Below, piece by piece: positions 7,446 to 64,000 of a DNA stretch of 64,000 nt. The notes under the pieces were generated by a model, which was not told where the DNA came from, made no database searches, and was given only the letters and a program-made list of their open reading frames with translations. Made by a program: the position numbers and the translations under genes. How positions within the stretch are numbered: the stretch's first letter is position 1; every line of letters starts with the position of its first letter. Location of the stretch: contig NC_134031.1 in assembly GCF_964204645.1 (NCBI RefSeq), positions 11,658,088-11,722,087 of the forward strand, written 5' to 3'. Source of the DNA: Tubulanus polymorphus (lineage: Eukaryota > Animalia > Nemertea).

Positions 7446-7850
7446 ATTTGAATGCACATTTATAATCCGAAAATATTTATATTGATGTCTCATTTATAAT
7501 GATGTATTGTTGAAAATTTATTCGTACGATGTTCATCGAATGATTCGTGAAATATATAGTATTCTAAATCTGTTTTTGAAACTCGCGGTTACTCCAAGTG
7601 TAGTTTTGTATATGCGCATGTATACTTCTGAGTTTTATGACTCGTTGGAATTTCTTATCAGTTCTGTAAACAGGTCACACGTGTACGTCTAGATTTTTAC
7701 AATTCACAATTCACCGTAGCATCCTGGAAATGACCGACATTTTCCAAGCGCAGGGTTTTGTATCCACGAAATTATGTGACTCATGCTCGGTTTCACTGAA
7801 AATTTTTCATGTAGCATTAACTGATTTGTGATCCACTTATTATCACTCAT

Positions 7851-8192
7851 TTATTTATCAAAAAAATTACTATCATCAAAATATTTAGTTTTCTTAGTGA
7901 TGATTAATTCAACATTTATTTCATTACTACTTTTATGATTATCATATATTTCGGTTAATATGTTTTTAATATCATCAATAATTCCATCTTCATTTAATTC
8001 ATAATATTCTAAAGGTGATTTAATTAAATCAATTACTTTTTCTATATTATAATTTTCTTTATTAATCATTGATGCATTGTTAAATGATTTACTTTTTATA
8101 TCAGTAATTACATCATTTAGTTTAATTCTCATTTCTTTACCATGTTTAAAATCAAACCCAAAACATATACTCGGTCCAACAGTTATAATCAT
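7851..8192 (-). CDS. Conserved Polinton hypothetical protein (MxITVGPSICFGFDFK family)
   Basis: Homologues at ~30914-31270 and 58344-58700. Confidence 0.7.
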   Translation of the reverse strand: MIITVGPSICFGFDFKHGKEMRIKLNDVITDIKSKSFNNASMINKENYNIEKVIDLIKSPLEYYELNEDGIIDDIKNILTEIYDNHKSSNEINVELIITKKTKYFDDSNFFDK

Positions 8193-8208
8193 TTATATAA
8201 TGAAAAAA

Positions 8209-8950
8209 TTACTCTTTACATCTTATAACTAATTCATATATCACAGGAAAGTTATTCAAATCAATTAAATAACCATTGTGATTTCTTATTTCTAATCTAA
8301 AATTATTAAAACGAGGAATGCATGGTTTGAAATCACATTCTGTTAAATTATAATTTATTTGCGTTCCAAATTCTTTAACATTCTTCAATGGTAAAATGTT
8401 TAGTAAACCAGAATTACAAGTTATATCTTTAGTTGCTTCGAATGTTTTTGTAGGATCGATTAAATTGCAATAAATATAAAAATGCGTGTAAGGTATTAAG
8501 TTTGGTGTGGCGTCAATATTTGTAAAAGATCTATCTGGAAGAATTCCTAACAGTTTAGCTATAGGTTTTTTTACTATTATTAGACAACCTTATCTTTATT
8601 CTATCAGAACTCTCACTTTTTAAAAATCTAATACTAAACCCAGAACTACTACCTAATTTGTGCCAGGCGTTTCTATTAATTTCTTGTGCTAATGTATCTA
8701 AATTATATAACCCCGGTTTTAAATATATAGAGGACCATTCATTTTTACCGTTATCAAAAATTAAAAAGGCTCTATGTTCAATAGTTTTATCCGATATATT
8801 ATAAAAAGAATTACATAAACTTATATTAACTAATTTTAAATCTACACAATTCTTGAATTCTCTATCTAATTGTACTAGTAAATTATGTGACTTATAATTT
8901 GTAAGCCTTCTAGAATCAACAAATCTTCTGTATTCTTTTAATTCTACCAT
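8209..8950 (-). pseudogene. Minor capsid (penton) protein, frameshifted
   Basis: Polinton-type single jelly-roll motifs: NSFYNIS, LKPGLYN, FYIYCNLI, LNILPL, LEIRNxNGYLIDLNNFPV. Confidence 0.7.
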
Positions 8951-8967
8951 TTATTTTACATATTTTC

Positions 8968-9321
8968 TTATTCGAAATCTATTTCATGGTGCCCTTTTTC
9001 ATTCTTACCTTTGTATACGAAATAGAAATCTCCAGAACATAATTCTTCTAAGTCTTCACTTGATAATCTATGAAATCTATCCGGTAAATATGTTCTGAAT
9101 TTATATGTATTTCCTTTTAATCCTTCATATTCTAAGTGTATAACTAATTTATCTCCATAGTTATTAGTAACTGTATCAATATTTGTAACTAGATATTTCT
9201 TATGGATTGTTAATTCTGTTAGCTTTTTGAATTTATAATCTACAGATTTTACATTTGTGATATCTTTAATTCTATCTAGAAATAATTTGTTGTTCTCACT
9301 GTTTGCTTGTTTACTCTCCAT
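8968..9321 (-). CDS. Small Polinton protein, putative OB-fold ssDNA-binding protein
   Basis: Intact 117 aa with an FKKLxEL...YG...FRTYLPDRF...FVYKG pattern, next to pPolB. The function is inferred. Confidence 0.5.
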   Translation of the reverse strand: MESKQANSENNKLFLDRIKDITNVKSVDYKFKKLTELTIHKKYLVTNIDTVTNNYGDKLVIHLEYEGLKGNTYKFRTYLPDRFHRLSSEDLEELCSGDFYFVYKGKNEKGHHEIDFE

Positions 9322-9350
9322 TTATAATACATATTTTTATTAAAATTTGA

Positions 9351-12300
9351 TTAACACGTTAGAATTCTTTTCATTATCTCGTTCTCTTTTGTTTCTTCTC
9401 TTTTAAATTTTAAGTATTCATCTAAATTACAACCATAAGCAACTGTATGAATTCCATCATCTAAAATATATCTTTTATCATCAAATGGGTTTAGACTTAT
9501 CTTCTCTATTTCTTCAATAAACATTTCATGATCATGAATACATTTTAGATCTAATACCAATGAATTCAATCATTTCTTCACCGCCTAATTCATCTTTGAA
9601 TTTACCAGGAACTTTTTTATTATCATTGCTAAACAATTCATGATCTTTAGGATAATAACTAAAATCAAAATGATGTTTTAATGTTTTTAAATCATCAGTT
9701 ATGTAATCAGTTTTTATCTTTAATATGTAACTGTCAGTATCAAAATATAATATTTCTATATGTTTTTCTCCAAAAAGTGGTTGTAATATATTATAATAGA
9801 ATTCATACATTAGTAATTTTGATAATTCTAAAACTGAAGCGCCAACATAGATTGGTTTATTAAATTTCATTGATGTTCTTCTCATCTTAACTGCAGCTAA
9901 ATTTTCATCAAATATTCTGTTACCAATGAACTTAGGATATGATTGTAAATGTCTAATTCTTTTACCATTACTAACTAACTCAATATCATTTCTATTTCTA
10001 ATATTTTCACAAGTCTTACCATAGAATGCATTATTCATTAACTTGAAGAAATCTTTTTCGAAATCAGTTTCAGCTTCAGTTCTCTGTTTGGTGTTAAAAT
10101 CTATATATTTTTCTAACCACTTAGATTGTCTAAATGAAATATATCTATGTACTTTTTTTAGAACCATTCCTTGATTTAGATAAAACTTTAACATTCTATA
10201 ATGTACTACATAATTATATTTATCTTCTTGAGTAACCATTAACTTTTCTGTATGAATATGATTTTCGGGTTTAATTCTTTTTTGGTAATTTGATAGTTCT
10301 TCATGAGTTACAGTTTTATGTTCGGGGCAGTAAGCTAGATTTCTAGATTTAAATTTTTTATCTTCAGGATATTCTAAATCTACAACAAAGAAGTAACCAG
10401 TATCTGAATCATCTGCAATATCTAGAATTCTTTTCTTCCTATCAAATTTATCATTATTTTCATTCTGTAAAACTTCAGTTATTTCAAATACTCCATAAGG
10501 TTGTGCTTCCATCATTGCCCAACCATACAAATTATTTGCATCTATATATAATAACTTATATCCTGGATTATCATTTACATTGAAATATCTATCGCCTAAT
10601 ACACCTGAAACTCCTCCTCTTATAGATTTTTCAAATAATAGTAATTGATCTATATTTGTTAACAAATCCATTTTTATATCTGTAAATTTTAATCCACAAT
10701 CCCATGTTAAACCTGGACTTGAATAACAATGACAAGGATCAATGTTAAAATATTTTAGGTTTACATCTCTAAACCTTTCGAATATATCGGTTAATAATAA
10801 TACATCTGATTTTAAATATAAATCTACTAATTGTCCATGATTTTCTATTTTGAAATGATTCCAAATATTCAATGTTCTATTAAAGACTTCATCTTTAACA
10901 TATTCATTTTTTAATTCATCATAGAATTGTTCTTTTAATAATTCAGTTATATTAAAATCATTATGTGATTTATAAAATGAATATGGAATTGCGCCTTTAT
11001 ATCTCATTAATTGAAAATCATCATTATTTGGGTAATGTTGCTTTAATATTCTTAATTCATTATCAACTAATGATTTTGATAAGTTATGTAATGAACTATT
11101 TAAAAATCTATATGAATCTATAAATCTTAGGCAACCAAATTGGAATGATATGTAATTCTCAGATGTTTTAGCTAACATTCTAAATTTAAAAGTTGGTATT
11201 TTATCTTTTGATCTATTTGAATTTAATCTTTCTATTTCATTATTAATTTCTTCTATTTTATGACATAACTGTTTGATAAATAAATGTGCATCATATCCTG
11301 ATAGATTTTGAAATATAACTGGTACAAAGTTAATTTTCTTAGCTTGTAAGTTACAATTCTCATGCGCTGCACCTCTAAACTTTCCATTCAAATGATCATG
11401 GTCTCTTACTTTTTTATCTCTAAAATTAAATATCTTTTCACAATAATAACATTTATCTGCAAACGCAAATGCTTCTTTATCTTCTTCTGTCATTATAATT
11501 TCTATATTTGTATTCAATAATTTACTAAATCTTATTTCATATTCAATTAATAAGTCACAAAAATGATTGATAACATTTTCATTTCTATAATGATAATATT
11601 CACTTTCAATTAGTTCTGGATAATTAGATTTCATATATAACCCGAAAGCTGCAGCTGATTGATGAATCTTTTTAATAGTATTTGTTTTTGGTGGTTCATC
11701 TGAAAAATCATTTTCATTAGAATTTAATTTCTTTCTTTTATAATATATTTCTTTTCTATCTTGATCAGTTAATTCTTTATTTAATGATTCAAAATCTCCA
11801 TATATAACAAATGGTACTTTATTTTTGTAATCATATTTTTTGAATTCTAATATTTTATCTTTTTCATTTGGTAAAACTAATTTACAATAATCATGATTTT
11901 CACAAAATTGTTTATGATTTAATAATGTACTTTCATTACTGAATCTATGTAAACATTTTCTACAAAGATATATTTTATTATCAAAATCATTTTCTGTTTT
12001 GAAAAATAAATCAATACGTTTTATCCACATATAATGATTCTCATAATATAGTATATCTATAACATCATTTGAATCATAATCTTTTGATAGATATAAAGGT
12101 TCTAATGTATAATGTTTTATGTTGTTACCTTTTGTATTTGGTAATTTGATTAAATCAAATACATTTATCTTTATATTATTATCTCTTTCTATTTTTGGGA
12201 TGTTTATAATTATAACAGGATACTTATCTATCTTATAATTATTTTCAAATTGTTTATAATGAGTTATTCTACAAATATTATAAGTTGCAGGATGTAAGCA

Positions 12301-13242
12301 ACTAATTATTGACCATAGAAAACATTTATCATCAGAATTTTGTATATTTATAACAGCATTAGTTTTAAATGGTAATTTGATATAACTTGATCCATTTATA
12401 ATATCATCTTTATAATATGATACATTATTTTCATCAATTGGTTTCGATTTAGTTAACTTATTATATTTTGTGTTATAAACATGTAAAGTCATAAATATTA
12501 TTTCATCAAATATTAAACCTGATCCTTCAAAATATTTCTCTTCTATTTTAGTTTTTACTTCATTATAACATTTATCTAATTTATCATCTATATGTTGTTT
12601 TGAAATAATATGTTGTGAATGAGAATTTATATTATATATTGGTTTATCTTCAGATTTTATAAACTTTACTTAAGAAGATATACTTATTTTAGGATATTCA
12701 ACATCAGTTATTATTTTTATAATATTTTTCATATTTTCTAAATGTTTTTTATTTTCTTCTAATGTTTTTCCTTTATGAAATTTAAACTCGATAGCTGCTG
12801 GACCAATATCACTTTTAAATGCTTCGGTTATCTCTATATCTTTTTTATTATCTAATGAATTAATATAATTTCTTACATCTTCCATGTATGGTCTTTTATT
12901 GTTTAATTTATTTTTTATGCTTTTAATTGTCTTCTGTTTCTTATCATTATCTTTATCAAAATAATCTTCACCTAAAATATCATTATTCATATTTCTAATA
13001 TGACTTTTAGATTTTAAATGTTCATTATAATATCTTTTATCACTGAATGATTGATTACATGTATCACATTTGTATGTTTCTTTTTCATTCTTTAATTCTT
13101 CTAATTTAGTTTCTAATATATCATCTTTATATTCTAGTTTCAATTTATTCTCTAAATGTGTTTTAGTTTTATTGTGTCTTGCTTTTTGGGATTTATCTAT
13201 ATTGATATTACATGTTGAACAGTAGTACTTATTTGCTTCCAT
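9351..13242 (-). pseudogene. Protein-primed DNA polymerase B (P1), intein-free
   Basis: Exonuclease motif YGDFES; polymerase motifs YIDANNLYG, KLMNNAFYGKT and YFDTDSY; EndoVII-like RDHDH...AHxxCN; N-terminal C2H2 fingers. Stop near 12670 and a ~140-bp C-terminal deletion near 9535. Confidence 0.95.
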
Positions 13243-13321
13243 TTTAATACTAAATTTTTTATTAAAATTGATTTTAGAAGTTATTCATTTATATTTTATT
13301 CATATATATGAATATTTTAAG

Positions 13322-13716
13322 AGTAATAGGGAATATCTTGTTTCAGGTTAAAGGTTGAATGGTCGAGTTCATTAATAACAAATATTAAAAGTAATTTAAA
13401 ACTATAATATATTTTCATAACCGTGTGTATTTCAGTTGAATATTATTATTATTTGAATATATTTGATTATATGAATTTGTGTGTTGTAAATAAATCAATT
13501 GGTCGCGGAGCGGAGCGGTAGCGAAGTGGAGCGACCAATTGATTTAATACAATATGCTTTTTAAATTATTGATATCTTAGAATAAATATTTAGTTTTAAT
13601 ATAAAATGCACACGGTTATGAAAATATATTATAGTTTTGAATTACTTTTAATGTTTTGTTTTTTAATGAGCTCGACCGTTCGACCTTTGATCTGAAACAA
13701 GATATTCCCTATTACT
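13322..13716. repeat. Palindromic terminal hairpin of P1
   Basis: AGTAATAGGGAATATCTTGTTTCAG...CTGAAACAAGATATTCCCTATTACT, with inner stem AATCAATTGGTCGC/GCGACCAATTGATT. Confidence 0.9.
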
Positions 13717-14624
13717 CTAGTAACTCTTTAGGTTAATACTAAATAGACTAGCTAGTTGAAGTTATGTAATTTTTATTCAAATCTTATCAAAATATAAAGT
13801 ATTCTCTTTTAAAAAGAAATATTAGATTTTGAAAAAAATTAAAATAGAAATAATGGCTAGTTAAAGATATGCAATTTTTAATTCTTAGGATTTAAAATAT
13901 CAGATAAGTCATTTTGGATTCTCGATAATAAATCCTCAAACTGAAAATCAATTCAACGAAACGCCTGGTGGAATAACTATTTCATAAACACATATATCTT
14001 ATTCTACAGTCAGTATCGATTTCAACATTCCAAACCCGGGCTTTTGTGCGGAATGCACAGCTGTCACTATAACCATTAACAACGACCGAATGACGCAATT
14101 GAAATTCCAGCAAACGTAATGCATTGAAAGTCTATACAGTATGGCTAAACTGCTACTGTCTCATGAGTTGAAATATCCGTAATTTCTGATTTCACATCCT
14201 TCCATATTCACTTTCATGACTCAAATAGCAATGGTCTTCTTGTTACGCGTAGCATTTTGTTATCTAAAAGATAAATATCTAGCGTAGAATAAAACTAACT
14301 TGAAGTTGTAGTTGTCAAATATAGATTAATACACTTAAACATGTTTAACGTTTCCCGGCGTCTTAATAACAACAAAAACAGTACTTACATTTAGAACTGT
14401 AAACTCCTAATTGTGTTTCTAGAGAGAAATCCTATGCGTTCCTATGCTTATGCACTGCGCGCTTATAACTGCCAGTTATTCACCAGCCAAACATTGTCTG
14501 TCTGAGCAACAGGTGTTCTTTTATGATGAAATTAATTAATTCTTTTCAACAGAGCACGTTCGATCAATATTCAAATGAAGTACTACTCCCCATTCAACTG
14601 AATTTATAACATGCGACACAGATG

Positions 14625-15391
14625 TTAGTAAAATTGCATAGGCAGTTTGACATACATCGAGAGTTTCCGGTTTTCTATACGTTTATATTCAACGTATTTT
14701 TCATTATGTATTGAGTTCCATAATTCAACAAATGTCTTTGCTTTATCCAGTTGATCTAAATATAATTTCATTTCTAGTTTGTTACCTTTCCTAATATTTT
14801 CAACTTTTTCTAAAGGTCTTAAGTTTTTCCAGCTCCATATTAACTTCAAATTGTATTCATCATTCATGTTAAATTTAGATATTGGTAACACATGATCAAT
14901 ATGAAAGTATTCACCATAGTTTTTTTCATTCATTTTATCGTCGAATTGATATATTATCCATTATTTGAGAAATTCATCTGAACACCCCAATAAATTAGAT
15001 AGTGTGGCTGAATGCGTTCTTTACTGAATAATTTTGTTAATCTAGAACTTAAACATTGTTTCAATTTAAAATTAAGATCCGTTTTATATCTTTCTTTTTG
15101 GTAATTATTTTGATACTCATTATAATGTTCTCTATTATCTTTTTTCCAATCTCTTAAATATTCTGGGTTATCATTTCGCTATTCCTTTTGATAATCTGGA
15201 TTATTTGCTCGGTATTGCTTATTCATTTCTTTAACTCAAGTTCTACAATAACGTTGCTTACCATCTTTCTGGGTTTTATCTTTGTATTATTCTGATGATT
15301 GTTTATTCAATTCACATTTTGAACATTTCTTATGATAAATATTAACAACACTATTTGTAATATTGATAGTTTGTGATTGTGTACTTTCCAT
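14625..15391 (-). pseudogene. HNH endonuclease of the giant-virus/phage type, with N-terminal CxxC
   Basis: KKCSKC...YC at the N-terminus, then NYGEYFHIDHVLPISKF...WKNLRPLEKVENIRKGNK. Internal stops and a frameshift. Confidence 0.75.
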
Positions 15392-15416
15392 TTATGATAC
15401 ATATTTTTAATAAAAA

Positions 15417-18062
15417 TTAACATGTAATAATCCTGTTCATTATTTCCTTTTCTTTCTCTTCTTCTCTTTTAAATTTTAAGTATTCTTCTAAATTGCAACC
15501 ATACGCGACTGTATGAATTCCATCATCTTTTCTATTTCTTCAATAAACATCTCGTGGTACTCAGATCTTAAACATTTCATCTTGTGTTTTCTAACTTCTT
15601 CATTGAATATACAATTGAACTACACTTTTGGTTATTCCTTTTAACTTTTTAGCTTCATGAGTTTTGGTTTAATATGAATACATTTTAGATCTAATGCCTA
15701 TAAATTCAATCATTTCCTCACCACCTAATTCATCATTAAACTTCCCTGGCACCTTTTTATTATCATTGCTAAACAATTTATGATCTTTTGGGTAATTACT
15801 AAAGTTGAAATGATGTTTTAATGTTTTTAAATCATCTGTTATGTTATTACTTTTAATCTTTAATATGTAACTGTCAGTATCAAAATATAAGATTTCTATA
15901 TGCTTCTCTCCAAAATGAGGTTTATAATAGAATTCATACATCAATAATTTTGATATTTCTAAAACTGAAGCACCAACATAAATTGGTTTATTGAATTTCA
16001 TAGAAGTTCTTCTCATTTTAACAGCGGCTAAATTTTTATCAAATATTCTGTTAACAATAAATTTAGGATATGTTTGTAGATGTCTAATTCTTTTACCATT
16101 GCTCACCAACTCAAAATCATTTCTATTTCTAATATTTTCAATTTTTTATTTATTCATTAACTTGAAGTAATCTTTTTCGAAATCAGTTTTAGCTTTAGTT
16201 CTCTGTTTGGTGTCAAAATCTATATATTTTTCTAACCATTTAGATTTTTGACTGAATGAAATATACCTATGTACTTTTTTTAGAATCAATCCTTGATTCA
16301 AATAAAACTTCAACATTCTATAATGTACTACATAATTATATTTATCTTCCTGAGTTACCATTAACTTTTCTGTACGAATATCATTTTCGGGTTTAATTCT
16401 TTTTTGATAATTTAATAATTCTTCATGTGTTACAGTTTTATGTTCGGGGCAGTAAACTAGATTCCTTGATTTGAATTTTTTATCTTCAGGATATTCCAAG
16501 TCTACAACAAAGAAGTAACCAGTATCTGAATCATCTGCAATATCTAGAATTCTTTTCTTCCAATCAAATTTATCATTATTTTCATGTTGTAAAACTTCAT
16601 TTATTTCAAATACTCCATAAGGCTGAGGCTCCATCATTGCCCAACCATATAGATTATTTGCATCTATATATAATAACTTATATCCAGGATGATCATTTAC
16701 ATTGAAATATCTATCGCCTAATACACTCGAAACTCCTTCTCTTATAGATTTTTCAAATAATAATAATTGATTTATATTTGTGAACAAATCCAATTTTATA
16801 TCTGTGAATTTTAAACCACAATCCCAAGTTAAACCTGGACTAGAATAACAATGACATGGATCAATATTGAAATATTTTAGATTTACATCTCTAAACCTTT
16901 CAAATATATCCGATAATAATAATACATCTGATTTTAGATATAAATCTACTAATTGTCCATGATTTTTTATTCCTAAATTGATTCCAAATATTCAATGTTT
17001 TATTATGGACTTCATCTTTAACATATTCATTTTTTAATTCATCATAGAATTGTTCTATTAATAATTCAGTTATATTAAAATCATTATGATTTTTATAAAA
17101 TGAATATGGAATTGCTCCTTTATAACTCATTAATTGAAAATCATCATTATTTGGATAGTGTTGCTTTAATATTTCTAATTCATCATCAACTAATGATTTT
17201 TATAAATTATCTAATGAACTGCTTAAAAATTATATAATAATATAATTCTCAGATGTTTTAGCTAACACTTTAAATTTATAAGTTGGTATTTTAGCAACAT
17301 CTTTTGATCTATTTGAATTTAATCTTTCAATTTCATTATTGATTTCTTCTATTTTATGACATAACTGTTTGAAAAATAAATGGGCATCATACACTGATAA
17401 ATTATGAAATACAACTGGAACAAAATTGATTTTCTTAGCTTGTAAGTTACAATTCTCATGCGCCGCACCTCTAAACTTTCCATTCAAATGATCATGGTCA
17501 CTAACTTTTTTATCTTTTAGATTAAATGTCTTTTCACAATAAAAACATTTATCTGCAAACTCAAATTCTTCTTTATCTTCTTCTGTCATAATCATTTCTT
17601 TTCTTTCATTTAACTTTTCATTAAATTTTATTTCATACTCAATTAATAAGTCACAAAAATGATTGATCACATTTTCATTTCTGCAATTATGATATTCACT
17701 TTTAATTAGTTCTGGATAATCAGTTTTTATATAATCAAAAAGCTTCAGCTGATTGATGAATCTTTTTAATATTAAAGGATCTGAATAATCAATTACATCA
17801 TTTTCATTAGAATTTAATTTCTTTCTTTTATAATATATTTCTTTTCTATCTTGGTCAGTTAATTCTTTATTTAATGATTCAAAATCTCCTTATATTACAA
17901 ATGGTACTTTATTTTTGTAATCATATTTTTTGAATTCTAATATTTCATCCTTTTCATTTGGTAAAACTATTTTACAATAATCATGATTATCTCACAATCG
18001 TTTATGATTTAATAATGCACTTTCAGTTCTGAATTTAGTTATACATTTTCTACATAGATATA
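15417..18062 (-). pseudogene. pPolB of P3, 3' part, intein-free
   Basis: YIDANNLYG, YFDTDSY and SDHDH...AHENCN; several frameshifts. Confidence 0.9.
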
Positions 18063-18458
18063 TGTTGCCGGGCTGTTTATTCGGCGGTATAGTTGATAGC
18101 CTCCGTTCGGTGCTGCCACCTTCATGGTCTGCATATAGTTTGAAGTCTTGACGGGAACAGTGTTAGTTTGTTGGCGGTCGCCTTCCAGGCAACCACTCTG
18201 TGAAATATATGTTGATGTGATTTACACTGTTCCCGCAGGTAAGAAAGCTTCGTATGATTCTGACTTAATTATTTATCATGTGTAATATTTATTGGTTAGT
18301 TTGTTGGCGGTCGCCTTCCAACAACCACTCTGTGAAATATATGTTGATGTGATTTACACTGTTCCCGCAGGTCTTTCGTTGTTGTTTAATGTTGGTTGGT
18401 GGAGTGGACCTCCGGACAGACGAGGCATATACAGGATTTACAAGAAAGCCCCGTCACA
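18063..18458 (+). repeat. 5' LTR
   Basis: TGTTGCCG...CCGTCACA; about six differences from the 3' LTR. Confidence 0.97.
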
Positions 18459-18460
18459 TT

Positions 18461-20318: not shown

Positions 20319-20784
20319 AGTAATAGGGGTAATAGGCTTTCAAATCAAAGGTCGAACGGTCGAGTTCATTAAAAAACAAATTATTAAAAGTAATTTAAAA
20401 CTATAATATATTTTTATAACCGTGTGCATTTCATATTATAACTAAATATTTATTCTAAGATATTAATAATTTTAATTTTAAAAGCATATTGTATTAAATC
20501 AACTGGTCGCTCCGCTTCGCTACCGCTCCGCTCCGCGACCAATTGATTTATTTACAATACACAAATTCATATAATCAAATATATTTTAATAATTATAATT
20601 ATTCTATTATTCAACTGAAATGCACACGGTTATGAAAATATATTATAGTTTTAAATTGCTATTACCCCTATTACTCTTAAAATAATCATATACATGAATA
20701 ACATTTAAATTGACAGATTATTCAATATAAAAGTGTAAGCTCTTATAGAATAGATATATAGATATATTTACAACATTATTTCAA
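20319..20784 (+). repeat. Left TIR of P2 (contains palindrome 20319-20675)
   Basis: Reverse complement of 41405-41925 apart from a ~55-bp deletion. Confidence 0.92.
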
Positions 20785-24589: not shown

Positions 24590-24592
24590 AAT

Positions 24593-28449: not shown

Positions 28450-28465
28450 TTACATAATAAAAAAA

Positions 28466-29782: not shown

Positions 29783-29798
29783 TTATATAATAAAAAAA

Positions 29799-30224: not shown

Positions 30225-30244
30225 TTATTTAGCAAAAAAAATTA

Positions 30245-47768: not shown

Positions 47769-47772
47769 TATA

Positions 47773-49044: not shown

Positions 49045-49083
49045 TTTAATATCCAATCTTTTTATTAAAATTGATTTTAGAAG

Positions 49084-49440: not shown

Positions 49441-49500
49441 TTTAATATCAAATTTTCTATTAAAATTGATTTTAGAAGTTATTCATTTTTATATTTTAAG

Positions 49501-49621
49501 AGTAATAGGGAATATGTTGTTTCGTATCAAAGGTTGAAAGGTCGAAAAATAAATTCGAGTGTGCGAGAATTATTTTTCGACCTTTCGACCTTTGGAATGA
49601 AACAACATATTCCCTATTACT
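49501..49621. repeat. 121-bp terminal hairpin of P3
   Basis: AGTAATAGGGAATATGTTGTTTC...GAAACAACATATTCCCTATTACT. Confidence 0.88.
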
Positions 49622-50459: not shown

Positions 50460-51000
50460 TTTATTCTCGTGTAATCGATAAAACAATAGGCTCTCAATAT
50501 GTGATCAACATTCCCAACCCACGTTGTTTTTCGCAGAAAATGATTTTTTTTAAATTTTATCATGGGTCCCTTAAGTAATTATAATTCGCTCGAAGGTCTA
50601 TCATATTTTCGGTGATTTTCTTTGGTCACGCCACCGGGTGCCTTCCTTCAGCAAAACCTACATTTTTTGCAATGTAGAACTTGCGGGAACAAATTTCTTT
50701 AGTAAAACATACAGTTAAAGCCAACACAACAGTTAAAGCCGTTCGTAGAACATATCTGACGATACAGAAAGATTTATTGTCGTATGAAAGATAAAACAAA
50801 CAAGGCTTTCAATTTGTAATCAACAATCCCAAAGCATGTTTTTTTCGCTAAAAATGAATTCCTCTTCATGTATATTTGATCACGGCGCATCTTCGCTCGA
50901 AAATAAATCTTCGACATTTTGGGTGATTTTCTTTGGCCACGGACCACACCGAACACAGGTGCCCCTGCAAAACCTATGTTTTTTTTACAATGTAGAATTC
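50460..51000. repeat. Diverged ~310-bp tandem duplication in the flank
   Basis: GATAAAACAA...CAACA(T/A)TCCCAA...TTTTTCGC...GGTGATTTTCTTTGG...CAAAACCTA...CAATGTAGAA occurs twice. Confidence 0.6.
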
Positions 51001-51149
51001 TATATAAGTTACCGAAAGGGCACTCGCCTATTTATTCATTAAAACTTAAGACTGGCTGTGCACTTCACCAAGTTTCGACTTTGGCATATTGTTACTGTAA
51101 TTAAGAATTAGTAATTAGGAAATGGCGTTTTCATTCGAGAGGTCGAGAC

Positions 51150-51189
51150 ACCACTCATCACCACAAGTAATTTCTTTTCCTTATAAATG
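51150..51189 (+). repeat. 40-bp inverted repeat, left copy
   Basis: ACCACTCATCACCACAAGTAATTTCTTTTCCTTATAAATG; 37/40 match to the reverse complement of 57511-57550. Confidence 0.9.
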
Positions 51190-54100: not shown

Positions 54101-56187
54101 ATAGTTATTTAAGTGAATACCAGAAGAAAATAAAACCGAAAGATCATGTTTTTACAGAAAAATTAATACTTACTCAAAATAATAAATACAATTATATTGT
54201 TCATTATAGAATGTTAAAATTTTATCTAAAACAAGGAATGAAATTAAGGAAAGTACATAGATATATTGAATTTAATCAATCGAAGTGGTTAGAAAAATAT
54301 ATAGATTTCAATACTCAACAGAGAACCATATCAAAAACAGATTTTGAAAAAGATTTCTTCAAATTAATGAATAATAGTTTTTATGGTAAAACATGCGAAA
54401 ATATTAGAAATAGAAATGATATTGAATTAGTAAATAATTCTGAAAGATTAAGACATTCACAATCAAGTCCTAGACATTTAGGAAATAAAAGATTTGAAGA
54501 TTATTTAAAAGCAGTTAAATTAAAAAGAACGTCAATGAAATTTAATAAACCTATATTCATTGGTTCAACTGTTTTAGAAGTATCAAAATTATTAATGTAT
54601 GATTTTTATTATAATGTTTTACAACCACTTTTTGGGGAAAAGCATATTGAAATATTATATTTTGATTCTGTAACAGCTGACACCCCAATATTATTAAAAT
54701 GTAATGATAAAATATTGATAAGAAGAATTTCAGAAATAATTCCAAAACAAAATGAATGTTATATTTCATATGATGAAAAAGAATTAATACAAATAAATGA
54801 ATTAATAGATGTTTGGACAAGAAATGGATGGAAAAAAATTAAAGAATATTATTAGACATAAAACAAATAAGAAAATCTATAGAGTTAGAACTAAATTAGG
54901 GTTTGTAGATGTTACAGAAGACCATAGTTTAATTAAACGAAATGGCGATGAAATAAAACCAACTGATATAAAAATTGGATATGAATTATTACATAAAAGA
55001 TTTTTCCAAAGAATGAATCATATGTCATTCGATGAAATTATTGATAATATTTATAATATAGAACCCGAAACATTAGAAGAAAAAGAATATTTTATCAAAG
55101 GATCTTTCATGGGTGATGGTTCAGCAGGTGTGTATAATTATGTTTGGGGTAATAAATATTGTTAGTATTTATGCAATCAAGACTTGAAATTATTAGAAAG
55201 AATTAAGAAATTCTGTGAAGAAGTTTATTCACATAAAACATTTAGAATCATGGATGTTATGAAATCATCAGCAGTTTATATAATACTTGTAAATAATCCT
55301 AAAGATTTTGCTATAAAATATAATGATGAATTCTATATTCATGCAATAGTGAAAAGTAATACTTCAACTAAAGAAAAGATAGTTCCAGATTATGTATTAA
55401 ATGCAAAAAATAATTTAAGAAAATGGTTCTTCATTGGATTCTACGCAGCAGATGGTGCTAAAAAATTTACAAAAGATAAAAAGATAACCTTTGCACAGAA
55501 AGGAAAAGTTGCTATATCAGGGTTAAATATATTATGTAATTCATTAGGCTTCAATATGAATATTGGATTGATTAAATCTAAACCAAATTGCTTTAATTTA
55601 AGCCATACAGAAAAAGATTTAACTGAAGAAGTTAAAGATTTATTTGAAATATATAACCCAACAGATAATGTTTATGATTTATCAACTGAAGATGGCACAT
55701 TCAACTGTGGATTTCCATTAATTTGCTTCAATACGGATGCGTACATACTAAAAATCAAGACAAATGACATAACAAAAGACTTAAAAACATTAAAACATCA
55801 TTTTGATTTTAGCAATTATCCCAAAGATCATGAACTATTTAGCAATGATAATAAAAAGATTTCTGGTAAATTTAAAGATGAATTAGGGGGTGATGAAATG
55901 ATTGAATTTGTTGGGATAAGAAGTAAAATGTATAGGTACAGAATAAAAGATCATGAAATAAAAAGTTAAAAGGAATAACAAAACATGTGGTTGATAAACA
56001 TATAGAATTTCAAGATTATATAAAGTGTTTATATAACTCAATTGTAATGAAACATAAAATGAATTGTTTAAGATCAGAAAATCACGAGATGTACATTAAT
56101 GAAGTTGAAAAAACTAGTTTGAATCCATTTGATGATAAAAGGCATATTTTAGATGATGGTATAAAAACATTACCTTATGGCCATTAA
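51187..56187 (+). pseudogene. Divergent pPolB of P4 containing an intein
   Basis: C2H2 fingers, DNKCFLWSI, YGDFES, RDHDH, YIDANNLYG, KLMNNSFYGKT, YFD[intein]TDAY, NPFDDKR; several frameshifts and stops. Confidence 0.95.
54667..55732 (+). mobile_element. Intein with LAGLIDADG homing endonuclease at the PolB motif-C (pol-c) site, ~355 aa
   Basis: Block A SVTADTPI, block B VDVTEDHSL, block C FIKGSFMGDG, block D KIVPDYVLN, block E FFIGFYAADG, block F VYDLSTEDGTF, block G ICFN|T. One +1 frameshift near 54840 and one TAG at 55163-55165. Confidence 0.95.
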
Positions 56188-57513
56188 AACAGAAAATCAA
56201 TATCATCATACTCGAAATCACTATTGGCTTCTTCATTTTCATTTAATTGTTCTTGTATAATTTGTTTAGGTTCTTCCATTTCATTTTTCTCATTTAAATA
56301 AAGTTCTATCTTGTACCACATTTCATATCGCTCTCTTTGTTTCTTTTTGTTTGTTAATTCGTCAAATGGAATTATAATATCGATGTTTAAATAATTTACA
56401 ATCTTATTTAAAAAGAATTCATAATTAATTGAATCTGTTATTCTATTTTCCAAATGATACATTAATATTTGTTTGAATGTTTTTTTTTATATTTTCCATA
56501 TCTTCTTCTGTTAATTTAGGTTTTTCATAATAATCGTTAAATAATAAATATAAATACATTTTCTTTTGTTTTCTGTTAAATGTTGATGGAATAATTGTTT
56601 TTATAATATCTTTTTTAGTTATTTCACCATTTTTATTTTCTATTATTTTCATTTTTTCAAGCCATTGCATATATTCTGGTGTATGATCTTCTATAGAAAA
56701 TATTTTAAAAATTTCATCTAGATAAATTAATTTTGGTTCTATGAGAAAATCTCTAGTATTTTCTTCACCCCATAAATTCTTTTGCCATCCACAATCAACA
56801 CAAAATAACACAGTACCTTCTTGTCTTAAATCGCGTAATTACATTGTGGACATTTTCGTTTATAATTTATTGGTAATAGATCTTCATTAAGCTCTTGGTA
56901 TTTTCTTACGTTTTCTTTATGTTTTATTGTTCTATTATGTAGATTTGAATTACTTGTTGTAATAATCAATTTACAATATTTACAATAATATGTTTTTCTT
57001 GTTAATTCATTATATTGTTTTTCTAACTTTTCAACTGTTTCTTTATTATCTGGTAACGTTTTCTCATATTTTATTTTTTCTAATAAATTATTTTTTCTTT
57101 CATTGAATTCAGTTTCAAATTAATTAGAAATTTTATCTATATGTACTTTACGAAATTGATGATTCTCCCAATCTTCTATATTTTCAGGGCTATATTTTAT
57201 TCGACAAGGCTCACAGAAATGATCTTTTATATTATCCTTATCATAGAATAAGAAAGGTCTTTTCCAAATAATGTCAGGTTCAACTTCAACAGAATTACTA
57301 TTACTTTCATTACTATCAACATTAGCCGTTGCGCCATTAATTTTACACTTCTCTGAATGTTTTTTAACATAATTTCTTGAGAATAATTTATTACATTTTG
57401 GACAGTTTAGTTTAGGGGGTTTATAATTTTCATCATGTTTTTTCATATGTCGAGCCATATTACTTTTTTCTTAGAAGTTCACCACAAATTTCACATGCTA
57501 TCTTCTCATCCAT
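56184..57513 (-). pseudogene. Multi-zinc-finger ORF(s) specific to the P4 module
   Basis: TAAATG start at 57513 inside the right IR; CEIC...HMKKH, CPKC...HSEKC, CEPC...H...H, CKYC, CPQC and CVDC motifs; broken by stops and frameshifts. Confidence 0.6.
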
Positions 57514-57550
57514 TTATTAGGGAAAAAAATTACTTGTGGTGATGAGTGGT
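57511..57550 (-). repeat. 40-bp inverted repeat, right copy
   Basis: CATTTATTAGGGAAAAAAATTACTTGTGGTGATGAGTGGT. Confidence 0.9.
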
Positions 57551-57571
57551 AATTTTTTTATGTTATAAATA

Positions 57572-58321
57572 ATGGTAGAATTAAAAGAATACAGAATATT
57601 TGTTGATTCTAGAAAACTTACAAATTATCAATCACATAATTTAATAGTTCAATTAGATAGAGAATTTAAGAATTGTGTAGATTTAAAATTAGTTAATATA
57701 AGTTTATGTAACTCATTTTACAATATATCGGATAAAAGTTTTGATCATAGATTGTTTATGATTCATGATAAAAATATGGATAAATAGTATCATCTATTTC
57801 TAAGACCAGGATTATATAATTTAGAAACATTATCTCAAGAAATTAATAGAAGAGCTCGGTTAAAAGTGGGTGAATCTGTTGGGTTTAACATTAAATTTAA
57901 TAAAATTGATAGTACTTATAAAATAAGAATAAAGTTAACTAATGAACAATATAAATTCATAGTAAGAAAACCATTAGCTAAAATGCTAGGAGTTAATCCA
58001 AATAAAGTTTATTCAAATGTTTATACTACGCCAAATATAATACCTTTTACGCACTTCTATATTTATTGTAATTTAATTGATCCTACAAAAACATTCGAAG
58101 CAACTAAAGATACAATTTGTAATTCTGGTTTATTAAATATTTTACCATTAAAAAATGTCAAACAATTTGGAACTCAAATAAATTATAATTTAACAGAATG
58201 TGATTTAAAACCTTGCATTCCACATTTCAATAATTTTAAATTAGAAATAAGAAATCATAATGGTTATTTAATTGATTTGAATAACTGTCCTGTAATTTAT
58301 GAATTAGTTATAAGATGTTAA
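57572..58321 (+). pseudogene. Minor capsid (penton) protein, internal stop
   Basis: Homologous to the P1 and P2 pentons. Confidence 0.7.
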
Positions 58322-58343
58322 GAGTACTTTTTTCACTATATAA

Positions 58344-58700
58344 ATGAATATAACTGTTGGACCGAGTATATGTTTTGGATTTGATTTTAAACGTGAGAAA
58401 GAAATGAAATTTAACATTAATGATGTAATTACACATATCAAAAATATTGCATTTTCTAATGAAACAACATTTGAGTATGAAACAACAATAGATAAAGAAA
58501 CTTAAAATGTAGAAACGATTACTAATTTAATTAGAGAATCTTTAAGATTTTATGAATTAGATGAAGATTTTATCATCGATGATATTAAAAAAATAATAAT
58601 TGAAATATATACAAATAAAACTAGTAATGAAATAAATGTTGAATTAATCATCGCTAAGATAACTAAATATTTTGAAGATAGTAATTTTTTTGATAAATAA
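58344..58700 (+). pseudogene. MNITVGPS-family hypothetical protein, internal stop
   Basis: Nearly identical to the P2 copy. Confidence 0.6.
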
Positions 58701-58922
58701 ATGAGTGATAATAAGTGGATAATAACTGGATTATATAATGGAGCATTACTATCAGTTGGAACTGTTGGTTATTCAATGATATTTAAAAAAGTATTTAAAA
58801 TGGGAAGTGTTAATGTTGATAGATTTGATATAAATGATATTTTAAAATTAACATTAGCAGTTACTTTATCTAATTTAACTATTGATTATTTGGAAAAACA
58901 AAAATATATTCCTCCCATATAA
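58701..58922 (+). CDS. Small hydrophobic protein (73 aa)
   Basis: Intact; homologue of 30692-30913. Confidence 0.75.
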   Translation: MSDNKWIITGLYNGALLSVGTVGYSMIFKKVFKMGSVNVDRFDINDILKLTLAVTLSNLTIDYLEKQKYIPPI

Positions 58923-58946
58923 ATGCGTAATTATTTTACTAAATAA

Positions 58947-59369
58947 ATGGCTTCTGCAATTATAACGATTATAGGATCAGCAATTGTTAACGCTTTAGCA
59001 TTTACTGGTGGCGGTTATTCATTTAAGCATATTGATAAAAATAGTTCGTTAGGAGAACAAAGAAGACATAATTTAGCATTAGAGAAATTTGATAAAGCAG
59101 CAGAAGAATACAGAGAAAAACGACAAAGCTATATCGATTATATTAACAAGGAATTATATGATCAGAAGATTTCACATAGAGATTTTCAATCAGTTGATGA
59201 TGCAATGAGTTTATATAACGCAGTAACCAATAAAGAAAAATTACATCTATACAAACCTAAATTATCAGATTATTATACCCCAAGTAAAGAACAACAGAAA
59301 TATGAAATAATTTGGATTTTAGGTGGAACAGTTATTGTTATATTTGTAGCATATAAATTTACTAATTAG
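58947..59369 (+). CDS. Small membrane-associated protein (140 aa)
   Basis: Intact; homologue of 30245-30667. Confidence 0.75.
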   Translation: MASAIITIIGSAIVNALAFTGGGYSFKHIDKNSSLGEQRRHNLALEKFDKAAEEYREKRQSYIDYINKELYDQKISHRDFQSVDDAMSLYNAVTNKEKLHLYKPKLSDYYTPSKEQQKYEIIWILGGTVIVIFVAYKFTN

Positions 59370-59388
59370 TAATTTTTTTTCTAAATAA

Positions 59389-59823
59389 ATGGAAGATAAA
59401 GTTGATAGTATTGATATTATTCCTCATGATATCAATAAAACTAAATTAAAAAACATATTTAGAAAAACAAATATTAGAATTTGAAAGTGACTTAAAGATA
59501 AAAAGAAAAAATATTCAAAAAGTAAAATTATATATTATCTTATTATTAGTGGTTCGGTTACAATTAGTTCTGTAATAACATTTCTAGCAATATTCAGTCC
59601 ATTAACACCTTTAGCTATATCAATTGGTGTATTAGGATTAAGTTCAAGTGTATTAACTGGTATAAGTTCAAAATTAAATATAAAAAGTAATAAAGAAAAA
59701 ATTAAAACTAATATAAAAGAAATTAATAAATTGAAGAATACACTAGATTATATGATAAGTTTAAATGGTCATATAACAGTTGAAGAACAAGATAAATTAT
59801 TAAAAGAATTAATAAATTATTAA
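59389..59823 (+). pseudogene. Two-TM protein, frameshifted
   Basis: Homologue of 29799-30224. Confidence 0.65.
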
Positions 59824-59839
59824 TTTTTTAATTAAATAA

Positions 59840-61229
59840 ATGGTAGATGGTTTTCCAAAATCTTTCCAATATAATAAATCAATTAAATATAATATTCCAG
59901 CAATAGATTTTAATAAAGATATTACATATAGAAATGAAGTTTTAGATTCATTAACTAATTTAGAAATTTATGTTACTGAAACTAATAATTTTAATGCAAA
60001 GATGGAAAATATATTTCATGTATATTTAATTAATTTTAAAAAATTGAAAGATGAAAAACAATGGTTATTAAAATCTAATATGAAGTATTGGCAGAACCAA
60101 TTAAATTTTGCTGTTTATTGTGCAACAACAGGTTGTGGAATTAGTTGGAATGATCATTTGAATAATTCTAAATATAAATTAATTCAAAGTTTATTTAGAT
60201 TTCATACATACTTTCAAATCAGAATAATATTAAATGAATTAGAGTGCGCTTTACCAGGATCTAGATATTTTAAAGAATTAGATAATAATATTAATTTATC
60301 AAAGTTTTACAAAATTTGTAATGAATTTGATATAGATATAAATAATTCTGATTTTAGAACAAAAATTGGAACAATAAGATCACTTCCTTGCCCTAAAAAG
60401 ATTGCAGAATATTGTGCACTTCCCATACCATCTAATAGTTTATATAATATCTGTAGTAATAAATTAGGTTATGGTAAAATAGAAACTTAGGATTTAGAAA
60501 CATTAAATTTCAATAAATTACCGACATTTTATGATAATTTAAAACAAGAAGACAATAATGGTTGGGTTTATTTCATTTTAGAAAATAATGAAGGTTTTAC
60601 AAAATCAGGTATACAAAGAATAAATCAATCTATTAGAACTTATTTGATATGTATTTTAGGTGCGCAAGTTGAAACAAGATCCCCAATAATTGGAAATTTA
60701 AATACATCATTTGATACACAGAAACAATTCAAAGTATTATTTGAAGATTCTATTCATAATGATAAAAATAGATCGATTCCAGAAAACATTGTAAGATATC
60801 AAAATTATTTAGATAAATCACATATTAGATTAAATTATTGTATAGGCCCTAATCTATTTATTATTTCTAATGATTTAGTATTAAAGATGGGAAACATAAT
60901 TGGTTAACAATAATCTAATTAAAACTGCAACAATAAATAATTCATTTGGATTAAATGATATAAATAAAAAGATTATTACTGCTCCAAAATTAATGGAAGG
61001 TGAAAAAAACAAAAAACACATTCAATCAACAGAAACTAAAACTAAGAATAATAAATTAAATAATGATTCTAAAATAAAAGATTACAATACTACAGAAAAT
61101 ATTAAAACTGATAATATTCAACATGATATAATTAAACTAAATGATGATAATAAATCCCATGAAAATACTAAATTAGCTTTAACTTGTATAGGAATTGTTA
61201 TAGGAGGAATATTATATTTTAAATTTTAA
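59840..61229 (+). pseudogene. Conserved hypothetical protein with C-terminal TM
   Basis: Homologue of 28466-29782. Confidence 0.65.
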
Positions 61230-61245
61230 TTTTTTTATTATATAA

Positions 61246-62688
61246 ATGGATGTAGAAGGTGGAGAAGATTATGAAATGGAAAATATGGGAAATAATAATG
61301 ATGCCAATACTAACGATGATGATTATATGACTGCTGATACTCATATTGATAATGATGGTAATGAATCATCATATAATTCTAATTTAGCAGAAAGTGGTTC
61401 TAAAGCCCCATCAACAGATGAATTGATAGAAGAACTAGATCGAGAATACCTCCTGAAAATTTAAATCAAGGAAAGAGAAAGTTTTGAAAATTATGAATTT
61501 ATGTATGATTTTCAACGTGTATTTAAAGATTCTGGATACAATATAAATAATAGAGGCGCCAGACTTTTAGTACAAGAATTAAAGTTTTTAGATGGTAAAT
61601 ATTATTATCATGTGAAAGATAAATCGGATTATTATATTAATATCTCTAATAAAAATCAAGACAAAATAATAGCAAAATCAACTTTGCTTAAGTCTGACTC
61701 ATTACTACCTAGAATTAAGAGAATAAGAAATAGTAATGAAATAGAAGATGTAACACAAGAAGAAATAAATCAAAATAAAAGAGTATTTAAACTAAGAATT
61801 AATAAATTATTTGAAACAATCAAAGATAATCCAGAAACAGAAACAACTTCTGAACAGAATATAAATTCCAAAACTAGTAAACTTAAATCAAATAAAGTTC
61901 CAATTGAAAAACTTTTACCGAATGGATTAATTGATGCAACAGATCAACAATTAGAAGATTTAAATAATATATTTTCTGATAAAGCAATTAGAGAGATTAT
62001 TAGTATAAGAAATGAAGCTGATAAAATTGCGCATGATAAAAGTATAAAAGATTTAAAAATTAGAACTTTAGAAAAAGAATTAACTGATAAAAATAAAGAA
62101 ATAGAACAATCAAAATTAGATAGAGATAATAAAGTTATTGAAGAAATTGAATTTAAAAAAAGAAATGCATATTTAGAAAAAGAAATTGATGATTTAGAAT
62201 ATAACATAGAATTACAAAAAGAAGAAATTAAATTATTATTAAAATCATATGATTATAATATTAATAGATTAAAAGTTATTTTTAAAGATTTGTTGATAAA
62301 ACCAGATTCTAAAATATCATTGAAAGATGGAATGAAATTATTATTTAAGTTAGAAGGAATAACAATTCTTTCAATTCTAAGAGCTGTAATTATGTTATTT
62401 ACAACAATTGGTTTAGCAATATCAAATGCTTTAAAATCTACTCCTACTCCAAATAAACCAGATAAACCCCCAGGTAATAATTCTATACAAGATAAAGTTA
62501 AAGATGGTTTAAAGAAATTAGCAAAATATTTATGGGAACTATCTAAAAAAATCTGCTGCAGCATTGCCAGGAGTTATTGCATCAATTGTTGGTTTTATAT
62601 TGAAATCTGCAGGAAACATTATTACTTTGCTGCTGAACATATTATTTTATTTTTAATTACAGTTGTAAGTGCTATTATTTTGGGTTAG
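61246..62688 (+). pseudogene. Large coiled-coil/TM protein
   Basis: Homologue of 27078-28449. Confidence 0.65.
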
Positions 62689-62731
62689 TGAATATGATTA
62701 AAAATAGATAATTAATTTTTTTGTTAAATAA

Positions 62732-63986
62732 ATGAGTGGGAGTTATATAAGTCCTTCTAAGATTTCTAGAATATCTAATGCTATTAAAGCAGAAAGATCA
62801 CATCATATAATTACTCATAATCCTTCAAATATTAATCCCGATGAAACTTTATATGTTAGAATTCCTCGATTAACACAAAATACTTTTTATGTTCCAAATA
62901 GTATTTATTTATCAGCCAATATAAAAGTTACGATAATGATGGTCATGATAATAATTATGTTGTTGATGATCTTAGGAGATATTTGATTAAAAAATTAACT
63001 ATAAAGATTGGTCCAGAAACAGTTTTCTCATTAGATGATTATAATTCATTTATGCATTATAAAGATTTATGGTTTACTAAAGAAAATAGAAATAATATGA
63101 TATTTCAGGGTATTCAATCGGAAAACCATAATAAATTAAGATCAGGAGCTAATGACGCAATAGTAACTCGTGCCACAGATAATTTGATTAAAAAGATTTA
63201 TGGGAGCAAATATAAAATTCCATTAGACTTTGAATTGATAAATAATAATGCACCTTTATATAAATACGCAATTCAAGAAGATATTATATTTGAGATAACA
63301 TTTGCTCTTGTAAATGAAATTGTATTATCTAGCGTTGTTAAAGATATGGGTTATAAATTATCGAATATATGTTTAGAATATGACACAGTAACTAATGAAA
63401 ATATTGCTAGCACAATTCAAAGTCAATACAATCAAGGATTTTCATTATTATATGATTATATTGATAAATTTAAAACTGTAACTATTAATGCAAATGGTGA
63501 AATAATTAATGAGAATATTAACTCCCCTAGAAGATCTATTAAAGGTATATTAATATTTTTTACAATTGCAACATATTCTAATGGCGCAATAAATGTTGAT
63601 AATTATCATAATCCTGAAATATCAAAAGTAGAAATAACTATTGAATGTATAGCAAATAAATTATTTTGTCAAGGAATGAGAATGATAGATCAGTGGCCAG
63701 AAATTAGAAAACATTTTATGAATAAAAAAAAAAATTATCTGAAAATTTTAATATTAATCAAATTGATTATTATACCGGTAATAAATACGCATAATGGTTA
63801 GATTTTAGAACAACTAAAGATAATTTATTACATGGTTCTGGTAAAAAACTACAGAACACTAAAGATGGAATACAATTATTCATGACAAAGAAAAAAGGAA
63901 GCTTAAATTTCAAAATGCACATTTATATTATATCTGACGCGCAATTAAATATTGTAAATTCTCAATTGAATAGTGTTATGCATTAG
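62732..63986 (+). pseudogene. Major capsid protein, full length but frameshifted
   Basis: THNPSNINPDETLYVRIP...YKIPLDFE...YKLSNICLEYD...RRSIKGIL...ISDAQLNI. Confidence 0.78.
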
Positions 63987-64000
63987 AATTTTAATTTTAA

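Follow-up and report, generated by a model that had tools for sequence, protein, structure and literature searches.

A high-copy Polinton family in the nemertean Tubulanus polymorphus with poxvirus-like gene starts and, in one subfamily, a giant-virus-type polymerase intein

Among described systems, the Maverick/Polinton elements, or adintoviruses (Polintoviricetes), with a Beta-type DNA polymerase of family B that is protein-primed (pPolB) and a protease-less gene set like that of the metagenomic Polintons L049, L061, and L072, are closest to the locus described here. Animal Polintons may be autonomous or may depend on a helper. Their virions are given as unobserved in the available text of two reports (PMC8097293; 10.64898/2026.06.19.733378), and the virophage-immunity hypothesis, already proposed for vertebrate Mavericks (PMC8097293), has so far been without a molecular handle. 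We analyzed 64,000 nucleotides of contig NC_134031.1 of the nemertean Tubulanus polymorphus (the window), in which positions 7831-64000 had been interpreted in an earlier note as one virophage-like Polinton system trading genes with a giant virus. Based on self-comparison, lists of open reading frames (ORFs), and a Pfam scan, this region is a nested stack rather than one element: four broken Polinton copies (El-1 to El-4), a Gypsy retrotransposon, and a long interspersed nuclear element (LINE). These Polintons belong to a high-copy family (endogenous polintoviruses), and a giant-virus-type intein is present in one of its subfamilies.

The family shares with Maverick/Polintons the pPolB, the rve integrase, the A32-like ATPase, and a predicted double jelly-roll major capsid protein (MCP), as well as terminal inverted repeats (TIRs), a 6-bp target site duplication (TSD), AGT-type ends, an animal-type genomic setting, and, in a subset, VLTF3 or a VLTF3-like gene (for Polintons, described in the accessible part of PMC11131425). 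It differs from them in its pol-c intein within pPolB, its T-run plus TAAATG starts, its terminal palindromes of 121-412 nt, its GC content of 22-26%, and its free-standing HNH nuclease, and in that no maturation protease was found. The pPolB (PF03175, E 1e-17) occurs in four copies in the window. The integrase has a chromodomain attached (rve, E 4e-9; El-2, 22896-23987, + strand, broken), and the packaging ATPase (Pox_A32, E 7.5e-4; El-2, 23980-24589, +, frameshifted) is 41-50% identical to its relatives. The MCP genes of El-2 (26230-27073, -) and El-4 (62732-63985, +) are both broken. The predicted fold of the MCP from the relative L049 matches double jelly-roll capsids (E ~1e-11, at a pLDDT of 52), and the MCP of the window family is predicted to be of this type; in this low-confidence model, iridovirus and PBCV-1 capsids rank above those of Mavirus (rank 41) and Sputnik (rank 47). 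Three genes (8209-8950, 31287-32041, and 57572-58321) are called penton candidates from position and resemblance, with no significant match. An adenain-like protease gave no tblastn or motif match in the window, and none is evident in the ORF lists of L049, L061, and L072; this protease is present in 74% of Polintons, according to the part of PMC4028283 available, and is not universal. In all, these three metagenomic Polintons agree with the window in gene set: pPolB, rve-chromodomain integrase, A32-like ATPase, capsid, and accessory array, without a protease. IMG/VR scans with the MCP and with the relatives' proteins P0128 and P0002 returned no matches, and the ESM Atlas gave nothing beyond one lead at 0.76.

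The provirophages of Cafeteria (Mavirus and the endogenous Mavirus-like elements, EMALEs; Lavidaviridae) likewise combine rve integration, pPolB, many endogenous copies, a conserved upstream motif, and no RNA polymerase. Unlike them, the window family has a capsid model (low confidence) nearer to iridovirus and PBCV-1 MCPs, a pPolB of full-length Polinton type, no helicase or protease that we could find, and a pox-type motif where the motif of Cafeteria roenbergensis virus (CroV) is TCTA. A cysteine protease is a core gene of Lavidaviridae. No protease was found in the window, and the MCP model, which is of a relative and of low confidence, is not of virophage type. By inference, the family works partly like a provirophage, yet it fails the Lavidaviridae tests that we ran.

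As the earlier note had pointed out, TAAATG starts are a real feature: TAAATG stands at 27 of 31 homology-curated starts, in 15 of 17 gene families, compared with 98 of 1717 other Polinton ATGs (5.7%; binomial p ~3e-17), the curation having been done after the list of TAAATG sites had been viewed. A T lies at -12 in 16 of 17 rows, with a 6-nt gap to TAAAT, and in the structural genes a T-run ends ~6 nt before TAAAT. Using a blind first-ATG rule, TAAATG was found at three of four starts in the intact relative L048 and at all six in L039 (38% GC), compared with 25/485 in 100 other related loci and 30/175 in 16 intein-bearing giant-virus loci. The start motif matches poxvirus late promoters in its sequence layout: the vaccinia late promoter has a T-rich core, 5-7 bp, and then TAAAT(G/A), while the mimivirus and CroV late motifs are unlike the TAAAT type (PMC5294985, in the text available). 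The yeast cytoplasmic elements (pGKL) use the same initiator overlapping the ATG with their own pox-like polymerase, in the accessible text of PMC6211774. Poxvirus and pGKL genomes encode their own RNA polymerase, whereas no RNA polymerase gene was found among the 46 window ORFs scanned with Pfam.

Because the starts are of the T-run plus TAAATG pox type and no RNA polymerase gene occurs among the ORFs, we favor, with a probability of roughly 45%, a reading in which a putative helper, a large pox-like DNA virus in co-infection, would supply the RNA polymerase that transcribes the Polinton genes. In this scenario, a Polinton copy would excise or arrive as a virion; with a TAAAT-initiating helper polymerase present, its intronless, AT-rich genes would be expressed; and pPolB would copy the genome, the ATPase would package it, and the integrase would place new copies in the host genome. 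This proposal includes no antiviral benefit for the host. An animal precedent exists in the Polinton-like viruses (PLVs) found in entomopoxvirus occlusion bodies, which share with our family an animal host and a proposed parasitism of poxviruses; unlike it, they are primase-helicase/tyrosine-recombinase elements, and "promoter" is not a word in the accessible text (PMC11296320). The start motif could serve as one of two molecular handles, the intein being the other; it predicts the exact transcript start, a 5' poly(A) leader, and the class of polymerase that reads the genes.

Could TAAATG instead be an effect of translation, such as stop-start coupling or an A-rich start context, plus AT bias? 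The genes are in tight tandem, one start uses the upstream stop, and AT-rich loci show raised rates, all of which would fit. However, the TAA is the stop of the upstream gene in only 1 of 13 El-2 cases, and divergent or first-in-row genes (51187, 57513, and 21924) also start with TAAATG, the first two sharing a duplicated upstream block. The six of six starts in L039, at 38% GC, also argue against it, and we regard this explanation as very improbable.

The upstream regions fall into two classes, an A-rich block ~13-20 nt upstream (pPolB, HNH, zinc-finger, and 117-aa genes; window positions 9321, 15391, 26197, and 32412, plus the pPolB starts) and the T-run of the structural genes, which recall poxvirus intermediate and late promoters, respectively. 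The block duplicated before the El-4 pPolB and VLTF3-like genes is ~40 nt long (51150-51187 and 57513-57550). L039, a distant Polinton-like contig with a protease-integrase fusion, has a 184-nt hairpin (4657-4840, z -15) upstream of its pPolB. Judging by its sequence, it appears to show the TAAATG and hairpin signals independently, in a distant lineage.

The second main feature is the intein. The pol-c intein of El-4, proposed in the earlier note, is real (54667-55732, +, with one frameshift and one in-frame stop), and sits between YFD and TD of motif C of a broken pPolB that itself starts with TAAATG (51187-56178, +). It begins with Ser, ends with Asn, and combines a Hint domain (block B "DVTEDHS") with a LAGLIDADG endonuclease in which both LAGLIDADG motifs are present (PF14528, E 1.7e-4; above the cut-off in the relatives P0002-P0004). 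The site is empty in the other three window pPolB copies. Searching with the C-terminal 292 intein residues against longer proteins gave 336 matches; among the best 120, the top three are protein-primed polymerases (P0002 at 63%, P0003 at 48%, and P0004 at 45%), and the remaining 117 are RNA-primed PolBs (PF00136) at up to 43%, including mimivirus PolB at 38%. The best non-Polinton matches have the same insertion site. In IMG/VR, the intein matched 37 loci, with full-length matches at 30-41%, mostly in giant virus metagenome-assembled genomes (GVMAGs). Four of six identifiers that we looked up are Imitervirales (IM_01, IM_06 twice, and IM_18), based on the supplement rows of PMC8575486, and two are absent from that table. 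Among prokaryotic genomes, 11 archaeal loci matched (best long match 25%), and among phages one record did (29%). The giant-virus affinity claimed for the intein is thus upheld, the best non-Polinton matches being giant-virus PolBs and the archaeal and phage matches reaching only 25-29%. Like the pol-c inteins of Mimiviridae/Imitervirales PolBs (mimivirus, P0072), it has the YxD/TD site, a Ser start, an Asn end, LAGLIDADG motifs, ~350 aa, and 38-45% identity; unlike theirs, its host protein is the protein-primed polymerase of an integrating element.

In a tree of 71 of 118 extracted inteins (near-duplicates >85% and inteins >450 aa were dropped, and 20 intein proteins missed by the extraction pattern lie outside it), the Polinton inteins, four in number, group on a single branch (SH-aLRT 100, stem ~0.7) nested in a set of 30 rows (support 98-99) that includes IM_01 and IM_06 members. 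Their pairing with a group defined by a C-terminal GFPL motif has support of only 89-92. These comparisons support a giant-virus ancestry of the intein. The direction of transfer, from giant virus to Polinton, is read from the far greater intein diversity in giant viruses. The El-4 extein is 71% identical to the intein-less El-1 and L048 and 58% to the intein-bearing P0002, and P0004 shares 45-47% of the intein yet has no significant extein match. None of the 80 other relatives with a visible site has the intein (104 loci examined). As one long-stemmed branch spans unrelated pPolB classes with a patchy distribution, the pattern suggests that the intein was acquired a single time in the distant past and later spread among Polintons, with loss also possible. 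Its source would have been a PolB of Imitervirales type, met in a co-infection, and homing would then have carried it between Polintons; it would testify to an earlier contact, with a donor that is probably other than the putative present helper. The same pattern suggests that giant-virus exchange is not ongoing in this host. With the motif fitting the poxvirus late layout while intein-bearing giant-virus loci show TAAATG at only 30/175 starts, two different contacts are indicated, one with a pox-type polymerase (from the motif) and one with Imitervirales (from the intein).

P0003, a Beta-type pPolB fragment from a contig of 101 kb, has the same intein, as does P0004, an Alpha-type pPolB whose extein is unlike that of the window family. 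Many giant-virus-type carriers (P0042, P0056, P0059-P0063, P0088, and similar) are PolB halves of 684-770 aa without the exonuclease family, which suggests split polymerase genes.

A giant-virus pol-c intein in pPolB is sequence evidence that Polintons and Imitervirales were once in one cell, and a case in which an intein can move between RNA-primed and protein-primed polymerases. In the accessible text of PMC11161782, intein invasions are merely suggested, for nuclease domains in pPolB, and the pPolB nuclease domains in that of 10.1101/2023.08.22.554363 are HNH and VSR. We did not find a pol-c intein or T-run plus TAAATG starts in Polintons in the literature searched, where figures or supplements may annotate such inteins. 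Apparently, no Polinton family has been reported that joins pox-type starts and long palindromic ends to a giant-virus pol-c intein in its pPolB and, in one subfamily, to a VLTF3-like gene.

El-3 carries a free-standing HNH/EndoVII-type nuclease (14625-15391, -, frameshifted, with a TAAATG start), and a 3' remnant of an HNH gene adjoins the left end of El-2. The nearest relative of the HNH, P0124 (72% identity), is intact in L048, where it lies immediately behind a pPolB that is itself intact and without an intein, the order also seen in El-3; L048 is ~71% identical. Because of this shared locus and gene order, the HNH is taken as an inherited gene that is stable at the same locus. The earlier note had called it giant-virus-type. 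The gene is real, and in IMG/VR the window HNH has two matches (44% over 84 aa and 55% over 62 aa), each located in a giant-virus capsid gene split by an intron, a weak point in favor; in full-length comparison, however, these two are 33-36% identical to P0124, equal to unnamed matches, and phage homologues occur in 23 records at 24-36% (PHROG 1035 at E 6e-12). A second HNH protein search gave 67 matches, none with an informative name. On these sequence similarities, giant-virus affinity of the HNH is favored but not exclusive. In L041 and L042, giant-virus major capsid genes lie in pieces around HNH ORFs, and these ORFs are likely mobile introns. The position behind the El-3 pPolB is taken by the HNH, which has its first codons and the region upstream of them in common with the 117-aa gene (15374-15528 compared with 9304-9462); this suggests that one gene replaced another under a common promoter. 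El-2 and El-3 are not alike in gene order.

In its full form, the model of the earlier note would have a single giant-virus helper as the source of intein and HNH and the site of replication, with induced endogenous copies holding it in check, as with Mavirus. Both genes do have giant-virus relatives, the reservoir of copies is large, and an inducible PLV defense has been reported in algae (10.1101/2025.10.09.676808, in its available text). However, the nearest inteins are those of Polintons, and no giant-virus intein examined exceeds 45% identity; donor-type loci have no TAAATG bias; the CroV and mimivirus late motifs differ; and all four window copies are broken. The signals do not converge on one helper now exchanging genes in the host: the intein branch is long-stemmed and shared across pPolB classes, the HNH is stably inherited in a ~71% identical relative, and the intein donors are not biased toward TAAATG. 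We consider this single-helper antiviral model improbable.

A far more serious rival to helper transcription is that the family leads an autonomous life in the nucleus, as a polintovirus or a transposon. Its AT-rich start motif would then be read by RNA polymerase II (Pol II) of the host, a VLTF3-like factor would aid some subfamilies, and the intein and HNH would be old passengers without bearing on the present lifestyle. Copy number bears on this. In raw reads from run X6 (same species label, ~12% of the run), depth at the right end of El-2 is ~2750x, compared with ~40x in the adjacent Gypsy, and 1439 + 257 reads run on from this end into flanks that are only 34-35% in agreement. Based on this terminus depth and on reads entering disagreeing flanks, the reads imply hundreds of independent Polinton insertions with precise ends. 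Read depth in El-4 is ~160-950x, and 170-235x over the intein; compared with an inferred single-copy depth of a few-fold, this suggests that intein-bearing copies number in the tens. Among 15 of 206 joints listed, none skips the intein. The window copy's private letters at nine pPolB-region positions are present in only 0-9 reads each, and most reads are without many of the breaks seen in the window copy. Six joints are present as single contigs in X1, five with 1-5 reads and one with 23. Run X8 yielded two short pieces, which say nothing about expression, and the small share found in the marine metagenome X5 was not taken as a sign of habitat. Within the window itself, the search for intact copies came up empty, with stops or frameshifts in four of four pPolB copies.

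Besides very high copy number and precise ends, autonomy is consistent with the standard TIRs, 6-bp TSD, and AGT-type ends, and with the presence of VLTF3 in L049 and already in coral Polintons (accessible text of PMC11131425). Against it, the TAAATG motif is missing from relatives that share the gene set. The sense strands also hold 4-5 AATAAA per kb, undepleted, and comparable AT content fragments nuclear-expressed genes of yeast virus-like elements (PMC6211774, in the text available). Undepleted AATAAA is seen in every group, and T-runs show a similar depletion whether in the window, in other Polintons, or in giant viruses. The initiator overlaps the ATG, with spacers of ~14-24 nt. For animal Pol II, such an initiator with intergenic spacers of this length is unusual. 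We hold autonomous nuclear transcription to be a real possibility that is somewhat doubtful.

The VLTF3-like gene enters this comparison on both sides. In El-4, 56184-57513 (-) is a single broken gene, found in El-4 only, that encodes a multi-zinc-finger protein with a VLTF3-like C-terminal domain and is homologous to P0128 and P0129. Five of the eight top Foldseek matches of the P0129 fold model are named VLTF3 or late transcription factor, the top ones being VLTF3 of cowpox, Tetraselmis virus, and entomopoxviruses. VLTF3 also occurs in giant viruses without their own RNA polymerase, which would fit autonomy.

Several results weigh against transcription by a helper polymerase. We found no helper sequence and no virion, the reads having been compared with window DNA only. 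Hundreds of germline insertions mean regular nuclear access. With the blind rule, TAAATG is found at only 13 of 37 starts in the broken window copies and at 9 of 73 in related loci below 30% GC. Nuclear and cytoplasmic groups could not be told apart by counts of AATAAA, T-runs, and splice donors relative to codon-shuffled sequences. The window VLTF3-like domain is below the Pfam cut-off (E 0.006), its profile comparison with L049 gives a probability of 2%, and the fold model has a middling pLDDT (61.5). VLTF3 was not detected in El-1, El-2, or El-3, all of which have the motif, and in L049 a clear VLTF3 (E 1e-16) goes with TAAATG at only 1 of 10 starts; VLTF3 and TAAATG are thus uncoupled. In addition, the intein tree is quick and unrooted, with SH-aLRT support, no bootstrap, and no cellular or phage outgroup.

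As the earlier note had it, the termini are hairpins, in the form of imperfect palindromes of 412 nt (El-2 right end, 41514-41925; z -27.8 against shuffles) and 121 nt (El-3, 49501-49621; z -17.7). Reads stop at the El-2 right end against many different flanks. The El-1 terminal palindrome (13322-13716) is 88% identical to it, and the arm mismatches of the two are alike, partly as G.T pairs. At the left end of El-2 (20319-20664), the inner arm is partly deleted. For the 121-nt end, a short-loop variant is found in 73 reads; the reads also show many copies without the inner TIR segment. We found no flip/flop termini, the three long ends sharing one orientation, and no strand-switch joint among 15 of 59 joints listed, nor a pile-up of molecule ends, which does not prove such forms absent. 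Terminal palindromes are known in Halocafeteria endogenous virophages and PLVs, where they likewise lie inside the TIRs beside the TSD; there they are 52 nt in the drawn subtype and mostly in elements without pPolB (10.64898/2026.07.28.741278, in the part available), compared with 121-412 nt, imperfect, in a pPolB element here. The hairpins reported at a convergent gene junction are real in El-2, as two tandem palindromes of ~180 nt (24589-25035; z -12.9), but they occur at only one of two convergent junctions, with none at the El-4 junction near 56180. A hairpin-termination rule of the Mimivirus style was therefore rejected in general for these junctions. The stems of the Mimivirus rule are far shorter than these palindromes.

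A bolder extension would have this animal Polinton lineage live as a hyperparasite on a still undiscovered, pox-like virus whose hosts are marine invertebrates, with pox late promoters, pox-like imperfect hairpin ends, its own VLTF3 redirecting helper transcription, a relay role in bringing a giant-virus intein into protein-primed polymerases, and hundreds of germline copies as an inducible reservoir. We think this unlikely as a whole.

The remaining anatomy follows the nesting. The passenger elements and the relatives point to an animal host, probably a marine invertebrate. El-1 (7831-13716, -), whose left end is lost, holds pPolB, the 117-aa gene, a probable penton, and small genes; its pPolB starts near 13242, without an intein and with an EndoVII-like domain. 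El-3 is split. Its left part (13717-18062, -) contains the 3' half of pPolB, the HNH gene, and a non-coding stretch, in the order of the intact relative L048, and its right part (47770-49621, -) the 5' half of pPolB, the 117-aa gene, and the terminal palindrome. Between them, inserted in the El-3 pPolB, lies the Gypsy retrotransposon (18063-47769, +), a passenger outside the Polinton proper whose long terminal repeats (18063-18459 and 47373-47769) are 98.5% identical and which has a 4-bp TSD. El-2, a full-span broken Polinton (20319-41925), sits within the Gypsy gag gene, with TIRs of ~470-520 bp beginning AGTAAT and a 6-bp TSD matching at five of six positions. Its structural and accessory gene array (27078-32412, -), common to L049, L061, and L072, encodes a coiled-coil protein, a conserved ~370-aa protein, a SLATT-like protein, small membrane proteins, a probable penton, and the 117-aa gene. 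The El-2 pPolB (32457-41279, -), without an intein, is split by the LINE (35701-40637, -), a passenger with APE and RT domains and internal duplications. El-4 (~51092-64000, +) is a diverged copy of the intein-bearing subfamily, cut by the window edge.

The AT richness that the earlier note had stressed relative to Gypsy is real (22-26% GC in the Polintons, compared with 42-47% in Gypsy, 29% in the LINE, and 34% in the left flank), but as a signal it does not discriminate: it is not diagnostic because related loci range from 22 to 63% GC. Rfam gave no matches. A separate 1.4-kb insertion at 49676-51091 has 38% GC, and 209 reads skip it. The left flank contains an ORF with DUF7869 (416-1339), a 49-bp satellite in 18 copies (5580-6458), and a 600-bp local duplication (2721-4511).

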